A stretch of DNA of 64,000 nt from Candidatus Omnitrophota bacterium (GTDB taxonomy: Bacteria > Omnitrophota > Gorgyraeia > Gygaellales > Profunditerraquicolaceae). How positions within the stretch are numbered: position 1 is the stretch's first letter; the number at the start of each line of letters is the position of its first letter. Location of the stretch: contig JALOQJ010000003.1 of the NCBI GenBank assembly GCA_025453445.1, forward strand, positions 23,369 to 87,368, read 5' to 3'. A model generated the notes under the pieces. The model was given only the letters and a program-made list of their open reading frames with translations. It was not told where the DNA came from and did no database searches. The position numbers and the translations under genes were made by a program. This document shows positions 4,555 through 55,098 of the stretch, piece after piece.

Positions 4555-5159
4555 TGAGAATAGCTGTTTTTGCTTCGGGAAGAGGCAGTAATTTTAACGC
4601 AATTGCAAAGGCTATAAAGAGCCAAAAAATTAAGGCAAGCCTTGCTTTATTAATTTGTGATAATCCAGATGCAGCTGTAATACTTAAGGCAAAACGCTTT
4701 GGGGTAAAAACATTTTTAATTAAACGTGCAGATTATAAAGATAAACCTGATTTTGAGAATAAGATTATTCAGGTTTTGCAAGAAGAAAAAATCAGCCTGA
4801 TTGTTTTGGCTGGGTTTATGCGCATATTAAGCAATGATTTCGTATTGAGATTTAAAAATAAGATCATCAATATACATCCTTCGCTTTTGCCTGCTTTTAA
4901 AGGATCGCATGCTATTCTTGATGCTTTTAATTATGGCGCCAAGGTTACTGGTGTTACTGTGCATTTTGTTGATGAATTAATGGATCATGGCCCGATAATT
5001 TTACAACAGGCATTAAAGATCGAAGAGAATGATACCCTGGAATCCCTTGAGGCAAAAATCCATAAAATAGAGCACAGGCTTTATCCGGAAGCAATCAGGT
5101 TGTGTGTGCAGGCAAGATTAAAGATAAAGGGAAGGAAAGTTCACCCCGCCCTTCATTAG
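4554..5159 (+). CDS. purN: Phosphoribosylglycinamide formyltransferase
   Basis: MRIAVFASGRGSNFNAI..., NIHPSLLPAFKG, formyltransferase core. ATG at 4554 overlaps the rnfB stop (TAATG). Confidence 0.85.
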   Translation: MRIAVFASGRGSNFNAIAKAIKSQKIKASLALLICDNPDAAVILKAKRFGVKTFLIKRADYKDKPDFENKIIQVLQEEKISLIVLAGFMRILSNDFVLRFKNKIINIHPSLLPAFKGSHAILDAFNYGAKVTGVTVHFVDELMDHGPIILQQALKIEENDTLESLEAKIHKIEHRLYPEAIRLCVQARLKIKGRKVHPALH

Positions 5160-5190
5160 TCATTAAGTTATGCCCGAAGAAGGGCGGGGT
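5138..5190. terminator. GC-rich inverted repeat CACCCCGCCCTTC...GAAGGGCGGGGTC between convergent purN and lipoprotein genes
   Basis: 11-12 bp GC stem with an ~18-nt loop in an AT-rich background; a member of the GAAGGGCGGGG repeat family. No strong T-run. Confidence 0.5.
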
Positions 5191-5199
5191 CAAGGTTAA

Positions 5200-6096
5200 C
5201 TAATCATCGGATCCGAGCAAGATAGCTGCCCTATTCAGAGTTACCTTCTTATTGGTTAATAAGTTGTGAAGTTTGACCTCGCCAAAATCTTTAAACCCAT
5301 AGGTCCTTAGAGTAAAAGCGGCAATCTTCTGTATCTCTTTATCAATATTTACCTTTTTTGGGTTAGTTAGTTCCGGTTTCTGAAATTTTAGCCTGATGCG
5401 CTGTTGGATTTGCGCGGCGATAAAGTCAGAGAGAAGGACATCTTTATAAATTAAATACTTGCCTGTTTTATCGTTTATAATTTTAGGGTCAATATTTGTT
5501 TCCTGTACTGTACGGTGTTGGTATTCATCATTGGAAATCAGGCCGTAAGAGACTTTTTTCAGATCGAGTGTATAAATTACCGTGCGGATATCAAATCCGG
5601 CCTTAGTATCGGCAATTACGATGACAATAAACTGCGGCCCTTGCCGCTTATGGTCAAGGCTGAAGAGTACGCGGCGCACTACCCTCCAGACGCTGCCTAA
5701 TTTCTCCGAAACGTTTTTATTGACATCATAATCTTCAGTCTGTTCTTTTTTCGGCACAGTTTTAATTGCGTATTCAATATTTAAAGCAGCGTTTTTAAAT
5801 TCGTTTTTATTTTGTTCGATTTTAAAAAGCTCTGTGGATTTTTTTGGTTTTTCAGCTTTGACAAAAATATCTTCTACGGGTAGGTAAATCCAGAGGGTGT
5901 TCTCGAACAGTTTTGTTTTTATATCAAGCTTAAGCTCTTTTTTTGCGAGGTCTTCGATACCAGAGGCAATCGTTTCTTTGGTATAGGTAGGGGTAGTGGA
6001 AGAACTGCAGCCACAGGCAAAGATTAGGATAAATAAAATAAAATTACTGAGCGCGGCTTTTGCCAAATTCTTTGAATATTGCTTCAATTTCATCAT
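5200..6096 (-). CDS. Hypothetical lipoprotein
   Basis: Start inferred at MMKLKQ...; signal peptide with lipobox-like IFACGC. Overlaps the ftsH 3' end by ~50 nt. Confidence 0.55.
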   Translation of the reverse strand: MMKLKQYSKNLAKAALSNFILFILIFACGCSSSTTPTYTKETIASGIEDLAKKELKLDIKTKLFENTLWIYLPVEDIFVKAEKPKKSTELFKIEQNKNEFKNAALNIEYAIKTVPKKEQTEDYDVNKNVSEKLGSVWRVVRRVLFSLDHKRQGPQFIVIVIADTKAGFDIRTVIYTLDLKKVSYGLISNDEYQHRTVQETNIDPKIINDKTGKYLIYKDVLLSDFIAAQIQQRIRLKFQKPELTNPKKVNIDKEIQKIAAFTLRTYGFKDFGEVKLHNLLTNKKVTLNRAAILLGSDD

Positions 6097-14016: not shown

Positions 14017-16908
14017 ATGGGATATAAGATTGAAATTAAGGAAAGACCGGGAATTTTTGATGCTGTGGGTAATGGCGTCAAAAAAGACATCCTTGATTTG
14101 GGGATAAATTCCGTAGATCGGGTGCAGTTTATACAAATTTATCTGATTGAAGGCAATATTTCTCAGGATGAAGTAAAGAAAATCTGCGAAGATCTGTTGG
14201 TGGATAAAATCAGCCAGGATTATTCTATCAATAATTCTCAGCCTCCGGTAGCCCGCCGGAATGAATTTGTTGTAGAAGTTGCATATAATCCCGGAGTAAT
14301 GGATCCTGTGGAGTTGTCGGTATTAAAAGCAATTAAAGACTTGGGCATAGACGGCGCTGAGGGAGTAAAAACCGCAAAGAAATACCTGCTCAGGGGAAAA
14401 CTCTCTGCAATACAGCTAAAAACAATTTCTGAAAAACTGCTTTATAATAAATTAATCCAGCATATCGTCAGCTCTCAGCTTTCAGCTCTCAGCTTTCAGC
14501 CTGCCGGGTATAAATTTAATCTTATTACTGTTGATCTTTCAGGCGCTTCCGATAAAAAATTGGAAAAAATCAGCAAAGACGGTCAATTATTTTTGAATCT
14601 TAAAGAAATGCGCCAGATTAAAAATTATTTTAAGGGGTTAGACCGTAATCCCACTGATTGCGAATTAGAAACCTTGGCGCAGACTTGGTCTGAACATTGC
14701 GGGCACAAGACATTTAGAGGAAGAATAAAATATACTGAGCAAATTAAAGATTCAAAACCCAAAACAAAGTTAATAGATAATCTTTTAAAATCTACAATTG
14801 TTAAAGTTACAAAAGAATTGAAAAAGCCGTGGTGTGTTTCGGTATTCCATGATAATTCCGGAGTAATTAAGTTTGACGATAAATATAATGTCTGTTTTAA
14901 AGTAGAAACGCACAATCACCCATCGGCATTGGAGCCTTTTGGCGGAGCAAACACTGGTATCGGGGGCGTGATCCGTGATCCGTTAGGCACAGGTTTGGGC
15001 GCTAAGCCGATTTTAAATACTGATGTTTTCTGTTTTGCGCCGCCTGATTATCCGTTTGATAAATTGCCTCAGGGTACACTTCATCCTAAGAGGATTATGA
15101 AAGGCGTAGTTTCCGGAGTGCGTGATTATGGCAATAAGATGGGAATTCCTACGGTTAACGGTGCAGTATTATTCCATGAAAGATTTGTCGGCAATCCGCT
15201 TGTTTATTGCGGTACTGTGGGAATTATGCCTAAAGATAAGACTTTTAAAGAAACTAAAGTTGGGGATTTGATTGTAGTGGTAGGCGGCCGCACCGGCAGA
15301 GACGGAATTCACGGCGCAACTTTTTCATCCGGTGAACTGACGCATGAGTCGGAAACTATTTCATCCGGAGCAGTGCAAATCGGAAACCCGATCCAGGAAA
15401 AGAAAATGGTAGATACGATATTACAGGCACGCGACATGAATTTATATAACGCGATTACTGACTGCGGAGCAGGCGGCCTCTCTAGCGCAGTCGGAGAGAT
15501 GGGCGCTGAAATCGGGGCAAGAGTTGATTTAGATAAAGTGCCCTTAAAATATTCCGGGTTAACTTATGCGGAAATCTGGATTTCCGAGTCGCAGGAAAGA
15601 ATGGTTTTGGCAGTGCCTAAAACTAATATTGATCGATTGCTTGAGGTTTTTGCTGCGGAAAATGTTGAAGCTACGGTCATCGGAGAATTTAACCAGACAA
15701 AACGGCTCGAACTTTTTTATCAGGGTAATCTGGTTTGTGATTTAAAGATGAAGTTTCTCCACGACGGCCTGCCGCAGCTGGAAAAGAAAGCTGTATTTAT
15801 TCAGGAAAAACACAGAGAGCCGAAATTGCCTGAAACCCAAAACCTGACAAAAAATTTATCAGAGTTATTATCGCATTATGATATTTGTTCCAAGGAATGG
15901 GTGATCCGGCAGTATGATCACGAAGTGCAGGGTGGGTCAATTTTAAAACCTTTAATAGGTATTGTGAATGATGGGCCGTCTGATGCTGCAGTAGCACAGC
16001 CAGTATTAGGCTCAAAAAAAGGCCTGATTATTTCTAACGGGATAAATTTCCGTTTTGGTTTTATTGATCCTTACTGGATGGCGGCATCTTGTATTGATGA
16101 GGCCTTGCGCCAGATTATTTCTGTAGGAGGATCATTGAAAGAAGTGGCGATTCTGGATAATTTTTGCTGGGGTAATCCTGATAAGCCGGACAGGCTTGGT
16201 GGCCTGGTCAGGGCAGCAAACGGATGCTATGATATTGCTAAGGGTTTTGGCGTGCCGTTTATTTCCGGCAAGGACAGCCTTTATAACGAATACAGCGTAA
16301 ATAATAAATCTTTGCCCATACCCGGCACGCTTTTGATTTCTGCCATCGCTGTGATGGATGATATCGCGAAAACAATTTCTATGTATGCAAAAAAATCTGG
16401 TAATTTAATTTATGTAGTCGGCGATACATATGATGAATTAGGCGGTTCGCATTATTATGATACTTTGGGATTTTTAGGCAATAATTGCCCGCGTGTAAAT
16501 ACCAAAAAAGCAAAAGAGGTTTTTAATGCTTTGAGTGCAGCATCATCTGCGGGTTTAATTGAGGCAATGCATGATTGCTCAGAAGGCGGCATTGCTGTGG
16601 CAGCAGCAGAAATGGCTTTTAGCGGCGAGTTGGGAATGGAATTATTTTTATCGGAAGTGCCCTATAAAATGCAAAGCGTAAGGAATGATTCTATACTATT
16701 TTCTGAATCAAATTCCAGATTTATTGTTGAAGTAGAAAAGAAGAATCAGAAAGCCTTTGAGCAAGAATTGCAGGGAATATCTTTTGGCTTGATTGGCTGT
16801 TTATCAAAAGATAAAAATTTTAAGGTGCACAGTATAGAGGGGAAAATCTGTATTGAAGCAGGGATTAATCAATTAAAAGAAGCATGGCTTAAACCATTGA
16901 GGTGGTAG
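14017..16908 (+). CDS. purL: Phosphoribosylformylglycinamidine synthase, PurS-PurL fusion
   Basis: 963 aa. The N-terminal ~80 aa resemble PurS. PurL AIR-synthase-like domains (GIGGVIRDP, GGRTGRDGIHGATFSS). Contains an in-frame heptamer-repeat insertion. Confidence 0.85.
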   Translation: MGYKIEIKERPGIFDAVGNGVKKDILDLGINSVDRVQFIQIYLIEGNISQDEVKKICEDLLVDKISQDYSINNSQPPVARRNEFVVEVAYNPGVMDPVELSVLKAIKDLGIDGAEGVKTAKKYLLRGKLSAIQLKTISEKLLYNKLIQHIVSSQLSALSFQPAGYKFNLITVDLSGASDKKLEKISKDGQLFLNLKEMRQIKNYFKGLDRNPTDCELETLAQTWSEHCGHKTFRGRIKYTEQIKDSKPKTKLIDNLLKSTIVKVTKELKKPWCVSVFHDNSGVIKFDDKYNVCFKVETHNHPSALEPFGGANTGIGGVIRDPLGTGLGAKPILNTDVFCFAPPDYPFDKLPQGTLHPKRIMKGVVSGVRDYGNKMGIPTVNGAVLFHERFVGNPLVYCGTVGIMPKDKTFKETKVGDLIVVVGGRTGRDGIHGATFSSGELTHESETISSGAVQIGNPIQEKKMVDTILQARDMNLYNAITDCGAGGLSSAVGEMGAEIGARVDLDKVPLKYSGLTYAEIWISESQERMVLAVPKTNIDRLLEVFAAENVEATVIGEFNQTKRLELFYQGNLVCDLKMKFLHDGLPQLEKKAVFIQEKHREPKLPETQNLTKNLSELLSHYDICSKEWVIRQYDHEVQGGSILKPLIGIVNDGPSDAAVAQPVLGSKKGLIISNGINFRFGFIDPYWMAASCIDEALRQIISVGGSLKEVAILDNFCWGNPDKPDRLGGLVRAANGCYDIAKGFGVPFISGKDSLYNEYSVNNKSLPIPGTLLISAIAVMDDIAKTISMYAKKSGNLIYVVGDTYDELGGSHYYDTLGFLGNNCPRVNTKKAKEVFNALSAASSAGLIEAMHDCSEGGIAVAAAEMAFSGELGMELFLSEVPYKMQSVRNDSILFSESNSRFIVEVEKKNQKAFEQELQGISFGLIGCLSKDKNFKVHSIEGKICIEAGINQLKEAWLKPLRW
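14466..14500. repeat. Tandem heptamer array YTCAGCY x5 in-frame inside purL
   Basis: cgtcagc tctcagc tttcagc tctcagc tttcagc, encoding SSQLSALSFQP. Confidence 0.8.
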
Positions 16909-18363: not shown

Positions 18364-18397
18364 GGTTGTAGCGGAGGTTTAAACCTCCGCTACAACC
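18364..18397. repeat. 34-bp perfect palindrome centred on GTTTAAAC
   Basis: GGTTGTAGCGGAGGTTTAAACCTCCGCTACAACC. A partial third arm (GCGGAGGTTAACC) supplies the purF-like RBS. A near-identical palindrome is at 39728. Confidence 0.7.
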
Positions 18398-21699: not shown

Positions 21700-21776
21700 A
21701 AAATTTAACAGGGACTGTCCCCGTCCAAGTCGTTTAACTGTATTTTAAGGGGACTGTCCCGTTGGTTCTTTCACAG

Positions 21777-21979
21777 TTTCGCGTGTGCCTTGTCTAGTTT
21801 CTCGCTCATTAGTATTGAGCGGGTCCTGTCTGCCGATCCACCTCGCCGTCCTCGTTATTCGCTGCGGGCGGCAAGGTCTTCGTCTCGGCAGCCACCCGCA
21901 AAAAAAGAATCTTTTTTCAATTAGGGGGGGGAGTTGGTTGGGGCGTTCCTGAGAAAACACAGACAAGACAGACGCGAGA
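21777..21979 (+). mobile_element. MITE-like GC-rich repeat, copy A, with ~22-bp terminal inverted repeats
   Basis: Left TIR GTTTCGCGTGTGCCTTGTCTAG and right TIR CACAGACAAGACAGACGCGAGAC. Internal similarity to copies at 40645 and 42150-42366 (shared AATCTTTTTTCAATTA). Contains a G8 tract. Confidence 0.55.
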
Positions 21980-22069
21980 CTTGAGAATAAATAGATTACG
22001 GCAGCAGATGGTTAAACAACAGAAGCAGTACATCGCCTGAGAAATTAGACAGGCGATAAAGGAGGAAAG

Positions 22070-22255
22070 ATGGCGTACGGACAAGGTGGTGGCGGTTATG
22101 GTGGCGGTGGTGGCGGATTCGGCGGTCCTCGTGAAATGCACAAAGCAATATGCGCGGATTGCAAAAAAGAATGCGAAGTTCCCTTTAAACCAAAAGAAGA
22201 CCGTCCGGTTTATTGCAGGGATTGTTTTTCCAAGCGTAAAGACAGCGGCCGGTAA
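22070..22255 (+). CDS. Small glycine-rich zinc-ribbon protein (61 aa)
   Basis: Strong RBS AAAGGAGGAAAG. N-terminal GQGGGGYGGGGGGFGG then CADC-x13-CRDC zinc ribbon. Confidence 0.6.
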   Translation: MAYGQGGGGYGGGGGGFGGPREMHKAICADCKKECEVPFKPKEDRPVYCRDCFSKRKDSGR

Positions 22256-36228: not shown

Positions 36229-36298
36229 TATCAGTCATCAGCTTTCAGCTATCAGCTTAAAGCTGAAGGCTGACAGTTAAAGGCTGACAGCTGAAAAT
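36229..36298. repeat. Intergenic heptamer array (NNTCAGC-like units) arranged as direct units followed by inverted units
   Basis: tatcagt catcagc tttcagc tatcagc ttaaagc | tgaaggc tgacagt taaaggc tgacagc tgaaaat. Confidence 0.55.
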
Positions 36299-39727: not shown

Positions 39728-39759
39728 GCCGTAGCGGAGGTTTAAACCTCCGCTACGGC
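39728..39759. repeat. 32-bp perfect palindrome centred on GTTTAAAC (same family as 18364)
   Basis: GCCGTAGCGGAGGTTTAAACCTCCGCTACGGC, 8 nt upstream of aroK. Confidence 0.7.
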
Positions 39760-39767
39760 ATTAGGTT

Positions 39768-40286
39768 ATGAACAATATTTATTTAGTCGGTTTTATGGGC
39801 ACAGGTAAGACTTCCGTCGGATATGAGCTTGCCAAAAAGATAAAGCAGCAGTTTATTGATCTTGATTCTTTGATTGAGCTGCGTGAGAAAAAGCTGATTG
39901 CAGATATTTTTGCCGAAAAAGGCGAGCCATATTTCCGTAAAGTTGAAAAGCAAGCTTTAAAAGAAGTTGCGAAAGAAAAAGGTTTTGTTGTTGCTACTGG
40001 CGGTGGGATTGTGATCAATCCGGAAAATATTAAAATTATGAAAGAAACAGGTATGTTGATTTGTTTGAGTGCGTCGCCCGAAGTAATTTTAAAAAGGGTG
40101 TCGGGATTAGACCTTCGGCCGCTTATGAATGTTAAAGATCCCAAAAAACAAATTGAACTGCTGTTAAAACTACGCGCGCCATATTATGCCTTGGCAGGTA
40201 AAACAATTGATACATCTAAGTTATCGGTAGGCCGAGTTGTACAAAATATCATCAAAGTCATCAGTAAGAGAGGTTCAAAAAGATGA
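39768..40286 (+). CDS. aroK: Shikimate kinase
   Basis: [16 protein letters not shown]-loop and SK fold. Confidence 0.85.
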
Positions 40287-40609
40287 AGAAATGCCCTTAT
40301 TGCGCAGAAGAAATACAGGACGAGGCGATAAAGTGCAGATATTGTGGGGAGATGTTGGAAAATAAGGTGCCTAAACCTAAGTGGTACCTCAAGACCTCCT
40401 CGCTAGTTATCGCTTTTTTATGTGTCGGCCCTCTGGCTTTGCCATTAATCTGGATAAATCCTCGTTTCAGCAAGAATAGTAAAATAATCATTACAATTGT
40501 GGTTATTATCCTAACCTATTACTTAGGTTCTTGGGTGTTAAGTTCTCTAAAGTCAATAAAAGAATATTACGGCCCGATCTTTGAAAATAATGCAGTTACC
40601 CTATATTAG
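40283..40609 (+). CDS. Zinc-ribbon membrane protein (hypothetical)
   Basis: CPYCAEE...CRYCGE zinc ribbon followed by two TM helices. Confidence 0.55.
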
Positions 40610-40644
40610 CTTCAAATATAATGACTAAGCTTGAGTCTATAATT

Positions 40645-40862
40645 GTTTCGCGTGTGTCTTGTCTGTATTTTTGCGGGAACGTTTGCCCCGCCCCAGCGTG
40701 GCGGGGCTGCACTTCGTTCCAGCCCCTCGCTCTCCCGCAGCCGGGCGGTGGATAAAATCGTTTTTTTATTAAGGAGCCGGCTGCGGGAACCGTGCCCGCT
40801 CGGGGCTTCCAAGATCCCGCAAAAACACATCCAAGCCACCCGCTGGACACAGGACAGTGCAA
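40645..40862 (+). mobile_element. MITE-like GC-rich repeat, copy B
   Basis: Left TIR GTTTCGCGTGTGTCTTGTCTG and degenerate right TIR GGACACAGGACAG. ~200 nt alignable with the reverse complement of 42150-42366. The listed ORF 40643..41236 N-terminus and the 40596/40612 - strand ORFs are translations of this repeat. Confidence 0.55.
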
Positions 40863-40906
40863 GGGAGCATGGGGGGGGTTATAGAGTTTTAGGAAAGGGA
40901 GGTAAC

Positions 40907-41236
40907 ATGAGAATATTTTTGTTATTAGTACTATGTTTGGGATTATGCGGGTGTGTAACTACATCATCGAGAATCAACAATATTTCTTTAGGAATGACCA
41001 AGGCAAATGTCCTCAGGTCTATGGGAACACCGACAAGCACATCTGCTAAAGGAACGACGGAATATTTGACTTATAAATTAATAGTAGCTTATGACCGTGT
41101 TGACCCAATTTATAATGACTACTTTGTTAAACTTATTGATGGAAAAGTCGAATCATACGGTAAGGTCGGGGATTTTGATTCTGTCAAGAATCCCACTAAC
41201 GATATAAATCTAAATGTTAAAAGTGTAATTAAATAG
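40907..41236 (+). CDS. BamE/SmpA_OmlA-like small lipoprotein
   Basis: RBS AAAGGGAGG. Lipobox LCGC. LGMTKANVLRSMGTPTSTS matches the SmpA/OmlA core. Confidence 0.6.
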   Translation: MRIFLLLVLCLGLCGCVTTSSRINNISLGMTKANVLRSMGTPTSTSAKGTTEYLTYKLIVAYDRVDPIYNDYFVKLIDGKVESYGKVGDFDSVKNPTNDINLNVKSVIK

Positions 41237-41285
41237 AAATAATGCGGTGTCCGAAGGAGCTTCAAAAATATATAGGACTTATCCA

Positions 41286-41317
41286 GAGAGTAGGTGACGT
41301 TTAAACGTCACCTACTC
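41286..41317. repeat. 32-bp perfect palindrome centred on GTTTAAAC (third family member)
   Basis: AGAGTAGGTGACGTTTAAACGTCACCTACTCT. Confidence 0.6.
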
Positions 41318-41432
41318 TTACCCTATGGATAATTCGGGGTTTTTAAAGTCGCGCCCCCTGTCTGATAGTAGGTGGAGAATCGCGTTTTGCCAACTGTCCA
41401 GAGAGGACAACGTAACAAAGTAAAGGTTGATA

Positions 41433-42137
41433 ATGGACGAAAATAAAATTGATGCAGCAGATTATTTACAAAGGTTTAGCGCAAAGGTTCTATGGCATTT
41501 TACAGGCTATAATAAGTCGTCGAAAGACTCTTTTGCCCGCTTAGTTTCGATAGCAAAAGAAGGATTATTAAAAATTTCCGATAGATCTTTTCCAATAAAA
41601 ATGCCCAATGGCGAAAAAAGAATTGGATTTCCTTCTTCTTGTGTTTGTGATATTCCTTTTAAAGACTTAAGATTGCATATTTTAAGATATGGAGGATTCG
41701 GAATCGCGTTTAATAAAGAAAAGGCAATTCTTACTGGGCACTTCAATCCTGTTTTATATATAAATAAGAATCATATTTTTTTTAAGCATGCAGAAAAAAT
41801 TTTACCAGAGTTAGAACGATTAGAGTCTTCGTGTGGAAATTCAAAACAAGTTTTACAAGAATATTTAAAGATGATGGGAACATATGTAAAACGTTGCGAT
41901 TTAACAAGTATAATACATCTTGATCCAAAGATTGATGAAGAGCAAAACAATAACTTTTATTATGAAAGAGAATGGCGTTCAGCTTATGATTGGAATTTTA
42001 TTAGAGGTGACGTAGTGACAGTAATGATGCCGCAAGATTATATTGGTTTATTTCAGGAAGAGCTCAAAGGAAGCAAAGGGGAAGGGGTATTTAAAAATCT
42101 TTCAATTATTTCGACAGAAATGGTAGAAATATTATAA
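41433..42137 (+). CDS. Hypothetical protein (234 aa); possible divergent ADP-ribosyltransferase-fold (DarT/DUF4433-like?) protein
   Basis: RBS AAAGG 6 nt before the ATG. Motifs LWHFTG...LVSIAKEGLL, YYEREWR and C-terminal STEMVEIL. Visibly more AT-rich than the flanks. The family call is recollection-level only. Confidence 0.5.
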   Translation: MDENKIDAADYLQRFSAKVLWHFTGYNKSSKDSFARLVSIAKEGLLKISDRSFPIKMPNGEKRIGFPSSCVCDIPFKDLRLHILRYGGFGIAFNKEKAILTGHFNPVLYINKNHIFFKHAEKILPELERLESSCGNSKQVLQEYLKMMGTYVKRCDLTSIIHLDPKIDEEQNNNFYYEREWRSAYDWNFIRGDVVTVMMPQDYIGLFQEELKGSKGEGVFKNLSIISTEMVEIL

Positions 42138-42149
42138 TGAAATAAGTAA

Positions 42150-42366
42150 CGGAGGGGGAGATTTTTAGCGTGGGGATTGGCTGGGATTTCGAGGGACGTG
42201 GAGGCAAGGAGCGGGCATGGTTCCCACATCCGGCTCATTAATTGAAAAAAGATTTTATCCACGGCCCGGATGCGGGAGAGCGACGCAGCCGACCCGAGCG
42301 AAGTTTTGCCTCGCAGGGGCAAAACGAGCGCTCCCGAGAAACCCAGATAAGACACACGCGAGACAA
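42150..42366 (-). mobile_element. MITE-like GC-rich repeat, copy C (inverted relative to copy B)
   Basis: The reverse complement starts GTCTCGCGTGTGTCTTATCTG (the TIR) and aligns with copy B through CTCGCTCTCCCGCA..CCGGG..GTGGATAAAATC. The listed ORF 42053..42355(-) is a translation of it. Confidence 0.55.
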
Positions 42367-54000: not shown

Positions 54001-55098
54001 ATGAATATTTTATTATTAAGCAATCACCTTAATGTCGGCGGGATTTCCAGCTATATTCTGACCTTAGCAAAAGGCCTGCAGAACAAGGGCCATAAAGTTT
54101 ATGTTGCTTCTGGTGCAGGTGAATTACTGGTGCGTTTAAAAGATGAAGGCATAATTCATATCCCCGTACCATTAAAGACTAAGGCAGAGATAAGCCCGAA
54201 TGTTTTAATCAGTTTTTTCAAATTATTGCCTGAGATGAAGAAAAAAAATATTGATATTATCCATGCCAATACACGGGTAACTCAGGTATTAAGCTGTTTC
54301 TTGAGCCGGTATTCAGGTGCGCCGTTTATTTCTACCTGCCACGGATTTTTTAAAAAAAGGTTGTTCCGGAAGATCTTATCCTGCTGGGGAGAGAGGGTAA
54401 TTGCTATCAGTGAACAGGTAAAAGAGCATTTGGTAAATGATTTTGGAGTTCAGAAAAATAGAATCAGGCTCGTTCATAATGGTATAGATTTAACTAAATT
54501 CAGCCCTCAGCTTTCAGCCTTCAGCTTTCAGCAAAAGAAAGATTTTGCTTTAAGCGACGGCCCGGTTATCGGGATTGTTGCCAGGCTCTCCGATGTTAAA
54601 GGGCATATTTACCTGATTCAGGCAATGAAAATGGTCTTAGAAAAAATTCCTTCAGCGCAACTGGTTATTGTCGGCGAGGGTAAGATTAAAGATAGCCTGG
54701 TCAAATTAAGCCGGGAACTTTGCATTGAGAAAAGCATGAAATTTATTCCCAATGTAATGGATACAAGGGGTATTTTATCGGTTATTGATTTATTTGTCCT
54801 GCCTTCTTTAAAAGAAGGGCTGGGCCTGAGCCTGATGGAGGCAATGAGCATGGGCAAAGCAGTGGTTGGCTCGAATATCGGCGGAATAAAAAGCCTGATT
54901 CAGCACAGGGTAAACGGGCTCTTGGTTGAACCTGCTAATCCTGAACAGTTAGCTTTAGCAATAATTGAGCTTCTGCAGGATGCAGCAAAAAGAGAATTAT
55001 TCGGCCAAAGGGCATTGGAATTTATCGCCGGAAATTTTTCTCAAAGTGACATGATTTCTAAGACGGAAGAGGTTTATCAGGAATGCGTAAAGCGCTGA
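54001..55098 (+). CDS. GT4-family glycosyltransferase
   Basis: EGLGLSLMEAMSMGKAVVGSNIGG. Contains an in-frame heptamer-repeat insertion. Confidence 0.8.
   Translation: MNILLLSNHLNVGGISSYILTLAKGLQNKGHKVYVASGAGELLVRLKDEGIIHIPVPLKTKAEISPNVLISFFKLLPEMKKKNIDIIHANTRVTQVLSCFLSRYSGAPFISTCHGFFKKRLFRKILSCWGERVIAISEQVKEHLVNDFGVQKNRIRLVHNGIDLTKFSPQLSAFSFQQKKDFALSDGPVIGIVARLSDVKGHIYLIQAMKMVLEKIPSAQLVIVGEGKIKDSLVKLSRELCIEKSMKFIPNVMDTRGILSVIDLFVLPSLKEGLGLSLMEAMSMGKAVVGSNIGGIKSLIQHRVNGLLVEPANPEQLALAIIELLQDAAKRELFGQRALEFIAGNFSQSDMISKTEEVYQECVKR
54498..54532. repeat. Tandem heptamer array YTCAGCY x5 in-frame inside the GT4 gene
   Basis: attcagc cctcagc tttcagc cttcagc tttcagc, encoding SPQLSAFSFQQ. Confidence 0.8.

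Follow-up and report, generated by a model that had tools for sequence, protein, structure and literature searches.

The window, by which we mean the whole stretch of 64,000 nt analysed here, comes from a Candidatus Omnitrophota bacterium, and the genes scanned in it form a run of housekeeping genes. Its DprA is 100% identical to a 'Candidatus Omnitrophica bacterium' DprA, and the same region is found on JGI contig Ga0392394_0000478. Three copies (A, B and C) of a GC-rich repeat named E1 lie between these genes, two of them around a low-GC segment inserted between aroK and dprA. The main features are as follows.

21776-21980: E1 copy A, a mosaic of left end, core, spacer and inverted left end
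40283-40609: zinc-ribbon gene, at the start of the low-GC aroK-dprA insertion (40283-42137)
40645-40844, plus strand: E1 copy B, the complete canonical 'B-type' of 200 nt (best match to the family model, nhmmer 189.8 bits and cmsearch 218 bits)
40907-42137, plus strand: low-GC (34%) accessory segment between the mutually inverted copies B and C (Pfam, PADLOC, composition)
40907-41236, plus strand: BamE-like lipoprotein gene
41427-42137, plus strand: AbiGi-like (abortive infection) gene
42167-42364, minus strand: E1 copy C, complete 'C-type' (cmsearch 191.9 bits)

The three elements contain 57-61% G+C compared to ~41% for the window, which bears out an earlier note on this DNA that had described them as GC-rich islands. 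Each is predicted to form a long branched hairpin; the predicted RNA folds have z values against shuffled sequences of -6.95 (B), -4.5 (A) and -3.15 (C), with a predicted energy of -103 kcal/mol for copy B. B and C are 73-74% identical over ~200 nt, and A has only the ends and an AT-rich centre in common with them. A relaxed pattern for the E1 end matched the window four times (twice in A, at its two ends, and once each in B and C) and was not found in 100 shuffles.

Census of the E1 family

The earlier note had proposed a new multi-copy family, and pattern scans added ~13 copies beyond the window, in unrelated gene contexts of metagenomes and one Omnitrophota metagenome-assembled genome (MAG), for at least 16 copies in all. 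The first scan of genome contigs used an over-degenerate pattern (TCGCGTNTGYCTTRTCT) and returned 115 matches, mostly due to chance, of which the one on MAG contig JAPLLY010000056.1 alone was real. This copy (locus L104, the reverse complement of L080) lies ~215 nt 3' of a 5S rRNA gene. At the two ends of the 48.6 kb contig, at least 6 kb of sequence, with the 23S/5S rRNA genes and E1 in it, is repeated as an exact reverse complement, and this end duplication is probably a fold-back assembly artefact. A sharper 19-nt pattern applied to metagenome contigs gave 28 loci, 15 of them with real copies, all on low-GC contigs; one of these loci (L125) duplicates another (L123). Searches with a profile HMM and a covariance model recovered 13 full-length copies, B and C included, plus several partial ones, and no further copy in the window.

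The boundaries of E1 are sharp, with flanks that are unrelated from copy to copy. Copy B and the copies in L120, L139 and L134 show few differences outside the apical region yet occupy different loci, and this near-identity points to recent spread. Full copies measure 145-202 nt, shorter forms go down to 41 nt, and the length variants are not multiples of 3. When the minus-strand ORF of B was translated and searched against proteins, neither a protein nor an extra copy was found. Scans of viral contigs gave 0 matches in one case and 32 chance matches in another, none of which fitted the family HMM, and a plasmid BLAST with B found no match. Copies A, B and C matched no family of Rfam release 15 at the gathering score, a check that the earlier note had proposed, and at E ≤ 10 the sole overlap was a snoRNA model (E = 6.6), which is noise. 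A full-text literature search found no description of such repeats in Omnitrophota. 6S RNA, Y RNA, CsrB-like sponges, attC sites, group II intron fragments and coding sequence were each considered and rejected, on the grounds of copy number or because defining motifs were missing, GGA motifs were not conserved or lengths varied by other than multiples of 3. E1 is a real and previously undescribed family of GC-rich, hairpin-forming repeats of ~200 bases, located between Omnitrophota housekeeping genes.

Anatomy and covariation of the element

Canonical E1 has a conserved 5' end, TCGCGTSTGTCTTGTCTGT, preceded by (GTT), and a dissimilar conserved 3' end, CAGCCAAGCCACCCGC; it terminates with ACACAGCCAAGCCACCCGC(T). 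Its structural parts in copies B and C are listed below.

40645-40678, plus strand: copy B, 5' strand of closing stem P1 (GTT-TCGCGTGTGTCTTGTCTGT-ATTTTTGCGGGA), near-invariant in 12-15 copies, partner at 40815-40843
40685-40707, plus strand: copy B, hairpin H1, an 8-bp hypervariable stem GCCCCGCC/GGCGGGGC with the loop CCAGCGT
40733-40788, plus strand: copy B, apical stem P3 TCCCGCAGCCGG/CCGGCTGCGGGA with an AT-rich loop, its length varying among copies
40815-40843, plus strand: copy B, 3' strand of P1, right end ...ACACATCCAAGCCACCCGC, with the motif CAGCCAAGCCACCCGC conserved among copies
42222-42277: copy C, apical hairpin TCCCGCATCCGG/CCGGATGTGGGA
42303-42325: copy C, hairpin H1 GTTTTGCC/GGCAAAAC

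The right end is an inexact complement of the left end. The two can pair at 14 of the 17 outer positions, the pairing reaches ~30 bp, and the resulting stem contains three fixed T:C mismatches (alignment columns 9:201, 13:197 and 18:191) present in 10-12 of 12 copies. Both ends are near-invariant even in the distant copy L104, and the sequence immediately 5' of the element reads GTT in 8 of 15 copies, its last two bases being TT in 11 of them. H1 lies ~40 nt from the left end, and there is no conserved hairpin near the right end. About 10 different H1 stems occur among 15 copies, always complementary and always around a loop conserved as CCNGCGN; the other unpaired segment that is conserved is GAACCGTGCCCGCTC. 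The P3 module is shortened or replaced in L134, L127 and L135.

The internal hairpins quoted in the earlier note for B and C are present where it had placed them, and the compensatory changes it reported between these two copies extend to 15. In a MAFFT alignment, 89% of cells in the paired columns can pair and 23 of 51 pairs have changes on both sides. The model-based alignment of 15 copies, which is biased towards the structure, raises these figures to up to 92% paired cells and 27 doubly changed pairs among the 45 modelled. None of 500 shuffles matched the double-change count, and slid controls reached 36-49% paired cells compared to 89-92% for the E1 structure. Compensatory double changes affect seven of the eight stem pairs of H1 and, in the model-based alignment, 9 of the 12 pairs of P3. 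The outer stem P1 is invariant and shows no covariation. The contrast is sharpest between the copies of L128 and L138, which, H1 and the apical loop aside, differ at ~2% of positions, but within the H1 stem differ at 8 of 16, with every change compensated; compensatory change in this internal stem is ~25 times the rate elsewhere.

The best reading of these data is that the fold of E1 is under selection, the folded species being DNA or RNA. The earlier note had gone further and taken the covariation as the product of a transcribed RNA. Selection on an RNA fold would indeed account for such strong covariation, and a functional structured RNA, acting as a 3'-UTR or intercistronic module for mRNA stabilisation, processing or protein binding, or as an sRNA family, with spread a secondary matter, would fit the conserved unpaired CCNGCGN loop and GAACCGTGCCCGCTC. 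It would also fit the preference for G:U over A:C pairs (14-20 compared to 6-7) and the predominance of pyrimidine:pyrimidine mismatches on the sense strand. Against it, the outer stem is invariant instead of covarying, and the predicted fold of the antisense strand is more stable than that of the sense strand in 13 of 13 copies. Since folding energy gave a result opposite to that of the G:U count, it was dropped as a test of strand. The covariation is no proof that E1 acts as RNA; the same pattern has been reported for REPINs, which are mobile DNA (PMC3116915).

Mosaic copies, gene context and site turnover

Copy A had been credited with terminal inverted repeats of ~22 bp. Inverted ends are present at 21776-21797 and 21944-21980, but both are left ends of E1, and A is a mosaic, not a simple copy. 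It consists of four parts.

21776-21797, plus strand: 22-nt E1 left end GTTTCGCGTGTGCCTTGTCTAG
21818-21899, plus strand: 82-nt palindromic 'core' unit AGCGGGTCCTGTCTGCCGA...TCGGCAGCCACCCGC, common to a second family, E2
21900-21943, plus strand: spacer with a run of eight G and AATCTTTTTTCAATTA, which matches 16 nt in the apical loop of C exactly
21944-21980, minus strand: inverted solo E1 left end GTCTCGCGTCTGTCTTGTCTGTGTTTTCTCAGGAACG

The core unit recurs with 98-99% identity at positions 7135-7216 of L142 and twice in L139, and with 79% identity at positions 9878-9956 of L147, upstream of dprA in a relative. Across 37 nt, 84% of the inverted left end can be aligned as the complement of the left end of B; this inverted end belongs to the GTTTTCTCAGGAGCG subtype, which adjoins E2 in L132, L139 and L142. 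Reduced, interrupted and nested forms occur elsewhere: L118 has a 41-nt mini form made up of the two ends only, L120 has the right half of E1 alone (4734-4825), and in L122 an E1 copy is split by an inserted IS481-like element that has unrelated ends of its own.

Family E2 is ~210-240 nt long and has terminal inverted repeats AATGAATCTGNCGNNTTTTC / GAAAANNCGNCAGATTCATT (TIR AATGAATCTGNCG...). It was seen in L118, L128, L132, L135, L138 (755-985, for example), L139, L142, L145/L146 and L150, often 10-20 nt past the right end of an E1 copy or fused to a solo E1 left end. The E2 terminal repeat was not found in the window, where the family is represented by its 82-nt core in the middle of copy A. 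Repeat fragments have accumulated at the same site in L124 as well: there a solo left end of the core unit (GCGGGTCCTGTCTG, 845-867) stands directly before the E1 copy 3' of a 5S rRNA gene.

Orthologous sites differ in their repeats. Downstream of the Band_7 gene there is copy A in the window, an end fragment of E2 in L150 and nothing in L149. In L147, a relative whose DprA is 75% identical, aroK directly precedes dprA, and the zinc-ribbon gene, copy B, the BamE-like gene, the AbiGi-like gene and a full copy C are all absent; the 140-nt aroK-dprA spacer holds a core unit and a left-end remnant. A relative with 85% identity (L145/L146) has an E2 end 14 nt upstream of dprA. The presence of different repeat types, or none, at orthologous places indicates turnover of E1 sites. 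A second case of accessory cargo between pieces of E1 was seen in L120 (3626-4825), where a full copy is followed by a small ORF, a PIN-domain (VapC-like) gene and the E1 right half in the same orientation.

Full copies share their orientation with the upstream gene or rRNA in 13 of 15 cases (two-sided binomial p ~0.007). The 5' end mostly lies 2-105 nt past the stop codon of the upstream gene, and in two cases the element follows a 5S rRNA gene. The flanks are G-rich on the strand that carries the E1 sense sequence, except in C and in L122, which is ambiguous, and the strand bias is confounded, as genes, GC skew and presumably replication share one direction. Copy C is antisense to both of its neighbours, with its 5' end 15 nt from the start codon of dprA. 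The neighbouring genes are unrelated to one another and include those for M48 peptidase, LUD, ferredoxin, FolD, MazG, PEBP, RNase E/G, PIN, HEAT, MtnA, MTHFR, HTH and RibF proteins. Scans for promoters and terminators gave nothing above shuffle expectation and no conserved -35 box. TATAAT-like boxes stand 3-7 nt 5' of several E1 starts.

The co-orientation with flanking genes, the position past stop codons, the two copies behind 5S rRNA and the TATAAT-like boxes are what a structured RNA would lead one to expect. These putative boxes lie in AT-rich DNA, and the lack of a conserved -35 box, a terminator or an Rfam relative in our searches, the antisense placement of C, the mosaic, truncated and IS-interrupted copies, and the turnover of orthologous sites all argue against such an RNA as the primary identity of E1. 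We regard it as an unlikely explanation, though one to be taken seriously.

A narrower proposal of the earlier note was a riboswitch-like leader of the Gly-rich zinc-ribbon gene (at 22070) and the BamE-like gene, switching between mutually exclusive GCGGGA/TCCCGC pairings. Small genes with Shine-Dalgarno sequences do follow copies A and B at a distance of 63-90 nt, and GCGGGA and TCCCGC are each present twice, so that the sequence allows an alternative fold with two hairpins to be drawn. However, the repeated motifs follow from the nested palindromic layout, and the alternative helices (29-34:90-95 and 143-148:175-180) have one and no covarying pairs, respectively, at 76-86% pairing, unlike the helix of the rod fold, which covaries. 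A leader role also fails on context: downstream genes are unrelated across at least 15 copies, their start codons are 42-463 nt away, C is antisense, and the consistent relation is to the upstream stop codon, which is the nearer of the two. A riboswitch is therefore extremely unlikely.

The earlier note had also called the repeat MITE-like. This holds in so far as E1 is small, non-coding and multi-copy with inverted ends, but no target-site duplication was seen at the flanks of any of 15 copies. That absence bears on the more specific possibility of a classical cut-and-paste MITE derived from a DDE-type IS, with terminal inverted repeats of ~20-37 bp and internal hairpins that are incidental. 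The inverted ends, small size, many copies, absence of an ORF and the L118 form that keeps just the two ends are all in its favour. Its ends are consistently unlike, its orientation is strongly biased, and the ~25-fold rate of internal-stem compensation between L128 and L138 is not predicted by neutral decay; we consider this origin very unlikely. No transposase, Y1 and RAYT types included, was found among the scanned window genes, and neither the window nor ~180 kb of related loci yielded an autonomous IS with E1 ends. The only transposase seen was the IS481-like one of L122, which is unrelated to E1.

Several smaller repeats were observed in the same DNA. Perfect 26-nt palindromes of the form GTAG-N7-TTTAAA-N7'-CTAC occur at 18368-18393, 39731-39756 and 41290-41315 of the window, each just past a stop codon. 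Two share one sequence, and in the third a different stem (GGTGACG for GCGGAGG) is compensated throughout; the corresponding regular expression had 0 matches in 1.2 Mb of unrelated control loci. Their resemblance to GTAG-tagged REPs is a hint that the genome may encode a RAYT. Palindromes of the form GGGACTGTCCC lie between stop codon and repeat in the window (21711-21721 and 21750-21760), in L150 (4885 and 4925) and in L134 (798). The pair after the Band_7 gene is kept in a relative and may be a terminator, an operator or a small repeat. Heptamer arrays (TTTCAGC/TCAGCYT, period 7 or 14) are found at 28-54, 344-386, 14468-14500, 36237-36264 and 54499-54532 of the window, some of them apparently within long ORFs. 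Between the Rnf operon and a minus-strand FtsH-like gene, 1.5 kb (4555-6043) is without an ORF of at least 70 aa and contains a strong hairpin at 5140-5193.

Relation to known repeats and the nature of E1

REPINs and REPs, which are associated with RAYT tyrosine transposases (Bertels & Rainey 2011, PMC3116915; Di Nocera et al. 2013, PMC3733652), resemble E1 in many respects. In REPINs a variable spacer able to form hairpins lies between conserved ends, compensatory changes are frequent, and long-hairpin and 'clover' folds are both possible (PMC3116915); REPs are found for the most part 3' of ORFs, and their transcription is plausible (PMC3733652). A REP unit is a palindrome of 20-40 nt with an unpaired GTAG or CGTC tag at one end, and the genome has a cognate RAYT gene that the repeats often flank. 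E1 is likewise extragenic and multi-copy, with two conserved ends around a hairpin-forming spacer, compensatory changes and long-hairpin/'clover' alternatives. It too occurs downstream of ORFs between co-directional genes, forms clusters and mosaics, and shows no target duplication. E1 differs in being longer (145-202 nt compared to ~70-110 nt), in its branched interior and in having a hypervariable stem capped by a conserved loop. Its ends are not short palindromic REPs and carry no GTAG/CGTC tag, no RAYT was found among the scanned window genes, and the host phylum, Omnitrophota, is outside those described.

Correia/NEMIS elements of Neisseria and ERIC/IRU elements of enterobacteria are bacterial MITEs that form imperfect palindromes 100-200 nt long and have terminal inverted repeats. 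Located between genes, they are co-transcribed with their neighbours to give long RNA hairpins, and they include internal-deletion variants; Correia elements produce a TA duplication. E1 has no known sequence similarity to these elements and differs from them in the lack of a duplication, its unlike ends, its strong orientation bias and its covarying internal stems. The IS200/IS605 family and the non-autonomous PATEs move by single-stranded DNA transposition with HUH Y1 enzymes, which recognise folded hairpins, and have unlike ends, no target duplication, a short conserved sequence just 5' of the left end, namely a fixed target of four or five nucleotides, subterminal hairpins at both ends, and strand-biased insertion tied to the lagging-strand template. 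E1 shares the unlike ends, the lack of duplication and a strand bias (confounded with gene direction); the short sequence 5' of its left end, mostly GTT/NTT before TCGCG, is only loosely conserved. In IS200/IS605, in contrast to E1, the ends are not known to form a long mutual stem, and no TnpA or TnpB was found near E1. Integron attC sites conserve structure over sequence, as an imperfect stem with fixed unpaired bases and a centre of variable length. E1 does the same, with its fixed mismatches and variable centre, but has no RYYYAAC/GTTRRRY core sites, cassette array or integrase, and its neighbours are housekeeping genes. E1 therefore stands outside the defined REP family, as it has neither tag nor self-palindromic ends, and outside the classical MITEs, as it has no duplication.

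Taken together, the evidence leads us to think it probable that E1 comprises non-coding, non-autonomous palindromic interspersed repeats of an Omnitrophota lineage, REPIN/MITE-like in behaviour. The dispersed near-identical copies, decayed and mosaic forms, turnover at hot spots, invariant ends around a paired but variable interior, and location past ORFs all fit a mobile repeat. We infer from sequence comparison that the copies have moved. The conserved ends would be recognised by an enzyme acting in trans whose gene lies elsewhere in the genome, and the substrate of this enzyme may be a folded single strand, as in single-stranded DNA transposition of the IS200/IS605-RAYT type. Such a substrate would account for selection on pairing, for ends that differ from each other, for the strand bias and for the absence of a target duplication. 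As the copies lie within runs of co-directional genes, they are probably co-transcribed; in that case the 3' UTRs or intercistronic regions of the mRNAs would contain long hairpins that may, as has been proposed for REPs, influence how stable an mRNA is or how it is processed.

Against this reading, no transposase or RAYT with matching ends was seen among the genes scanned, and B-type copies keep ~150 nt of near-invariant sequence, above the needs of most MITEs. Identity as a REPIN is contradicted by the absence of a GTAG/CGTC tag and of self-palindromic REP ends. A more novel interpretation, which we think quite unlikely, is that E1 is the substrate of an undescribed Omnitrophota system for mobilisation or recognition of folded single strands, in which the mismatched closing stem and CCNGCGN loop would be protein-recognition elements and the fast-evolving but paired H1 a lineage 'address' setting sub-families apart, or else that E1 is a structured RNA module which is mobile and has been domesticated within operon transcripts.

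Omnitrophota have not been brought into culture, and next to nothing has been charted of their mobile and non-coding elements. If E1 is a mobile repeat, as we think probable, a GC-rich island with the look of structured RNA and textbook covariation can in fact be palindromic DNA that moves, which calls for practical caution when non-coding RNA is sought by covariation in AT-rich MAGs. The repeats also appear to break assemblies, as the contigs of L145 and L146 end inside or beside one. With its invariant but unlike and mismatched ends, its hypervariable yet paired stems, its strong strand bias and its lack of a target duplication, E1 offers a tractable case in which selection on hairpins in single-stranded DNA can be weighed against selection on RNA. 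Its pieces bracket accessory or defence-type cargo, the AbiGi-like gene in the window and the PIN-domain gene in L120, which hints at a role for E1 in the shuffling of small islands.
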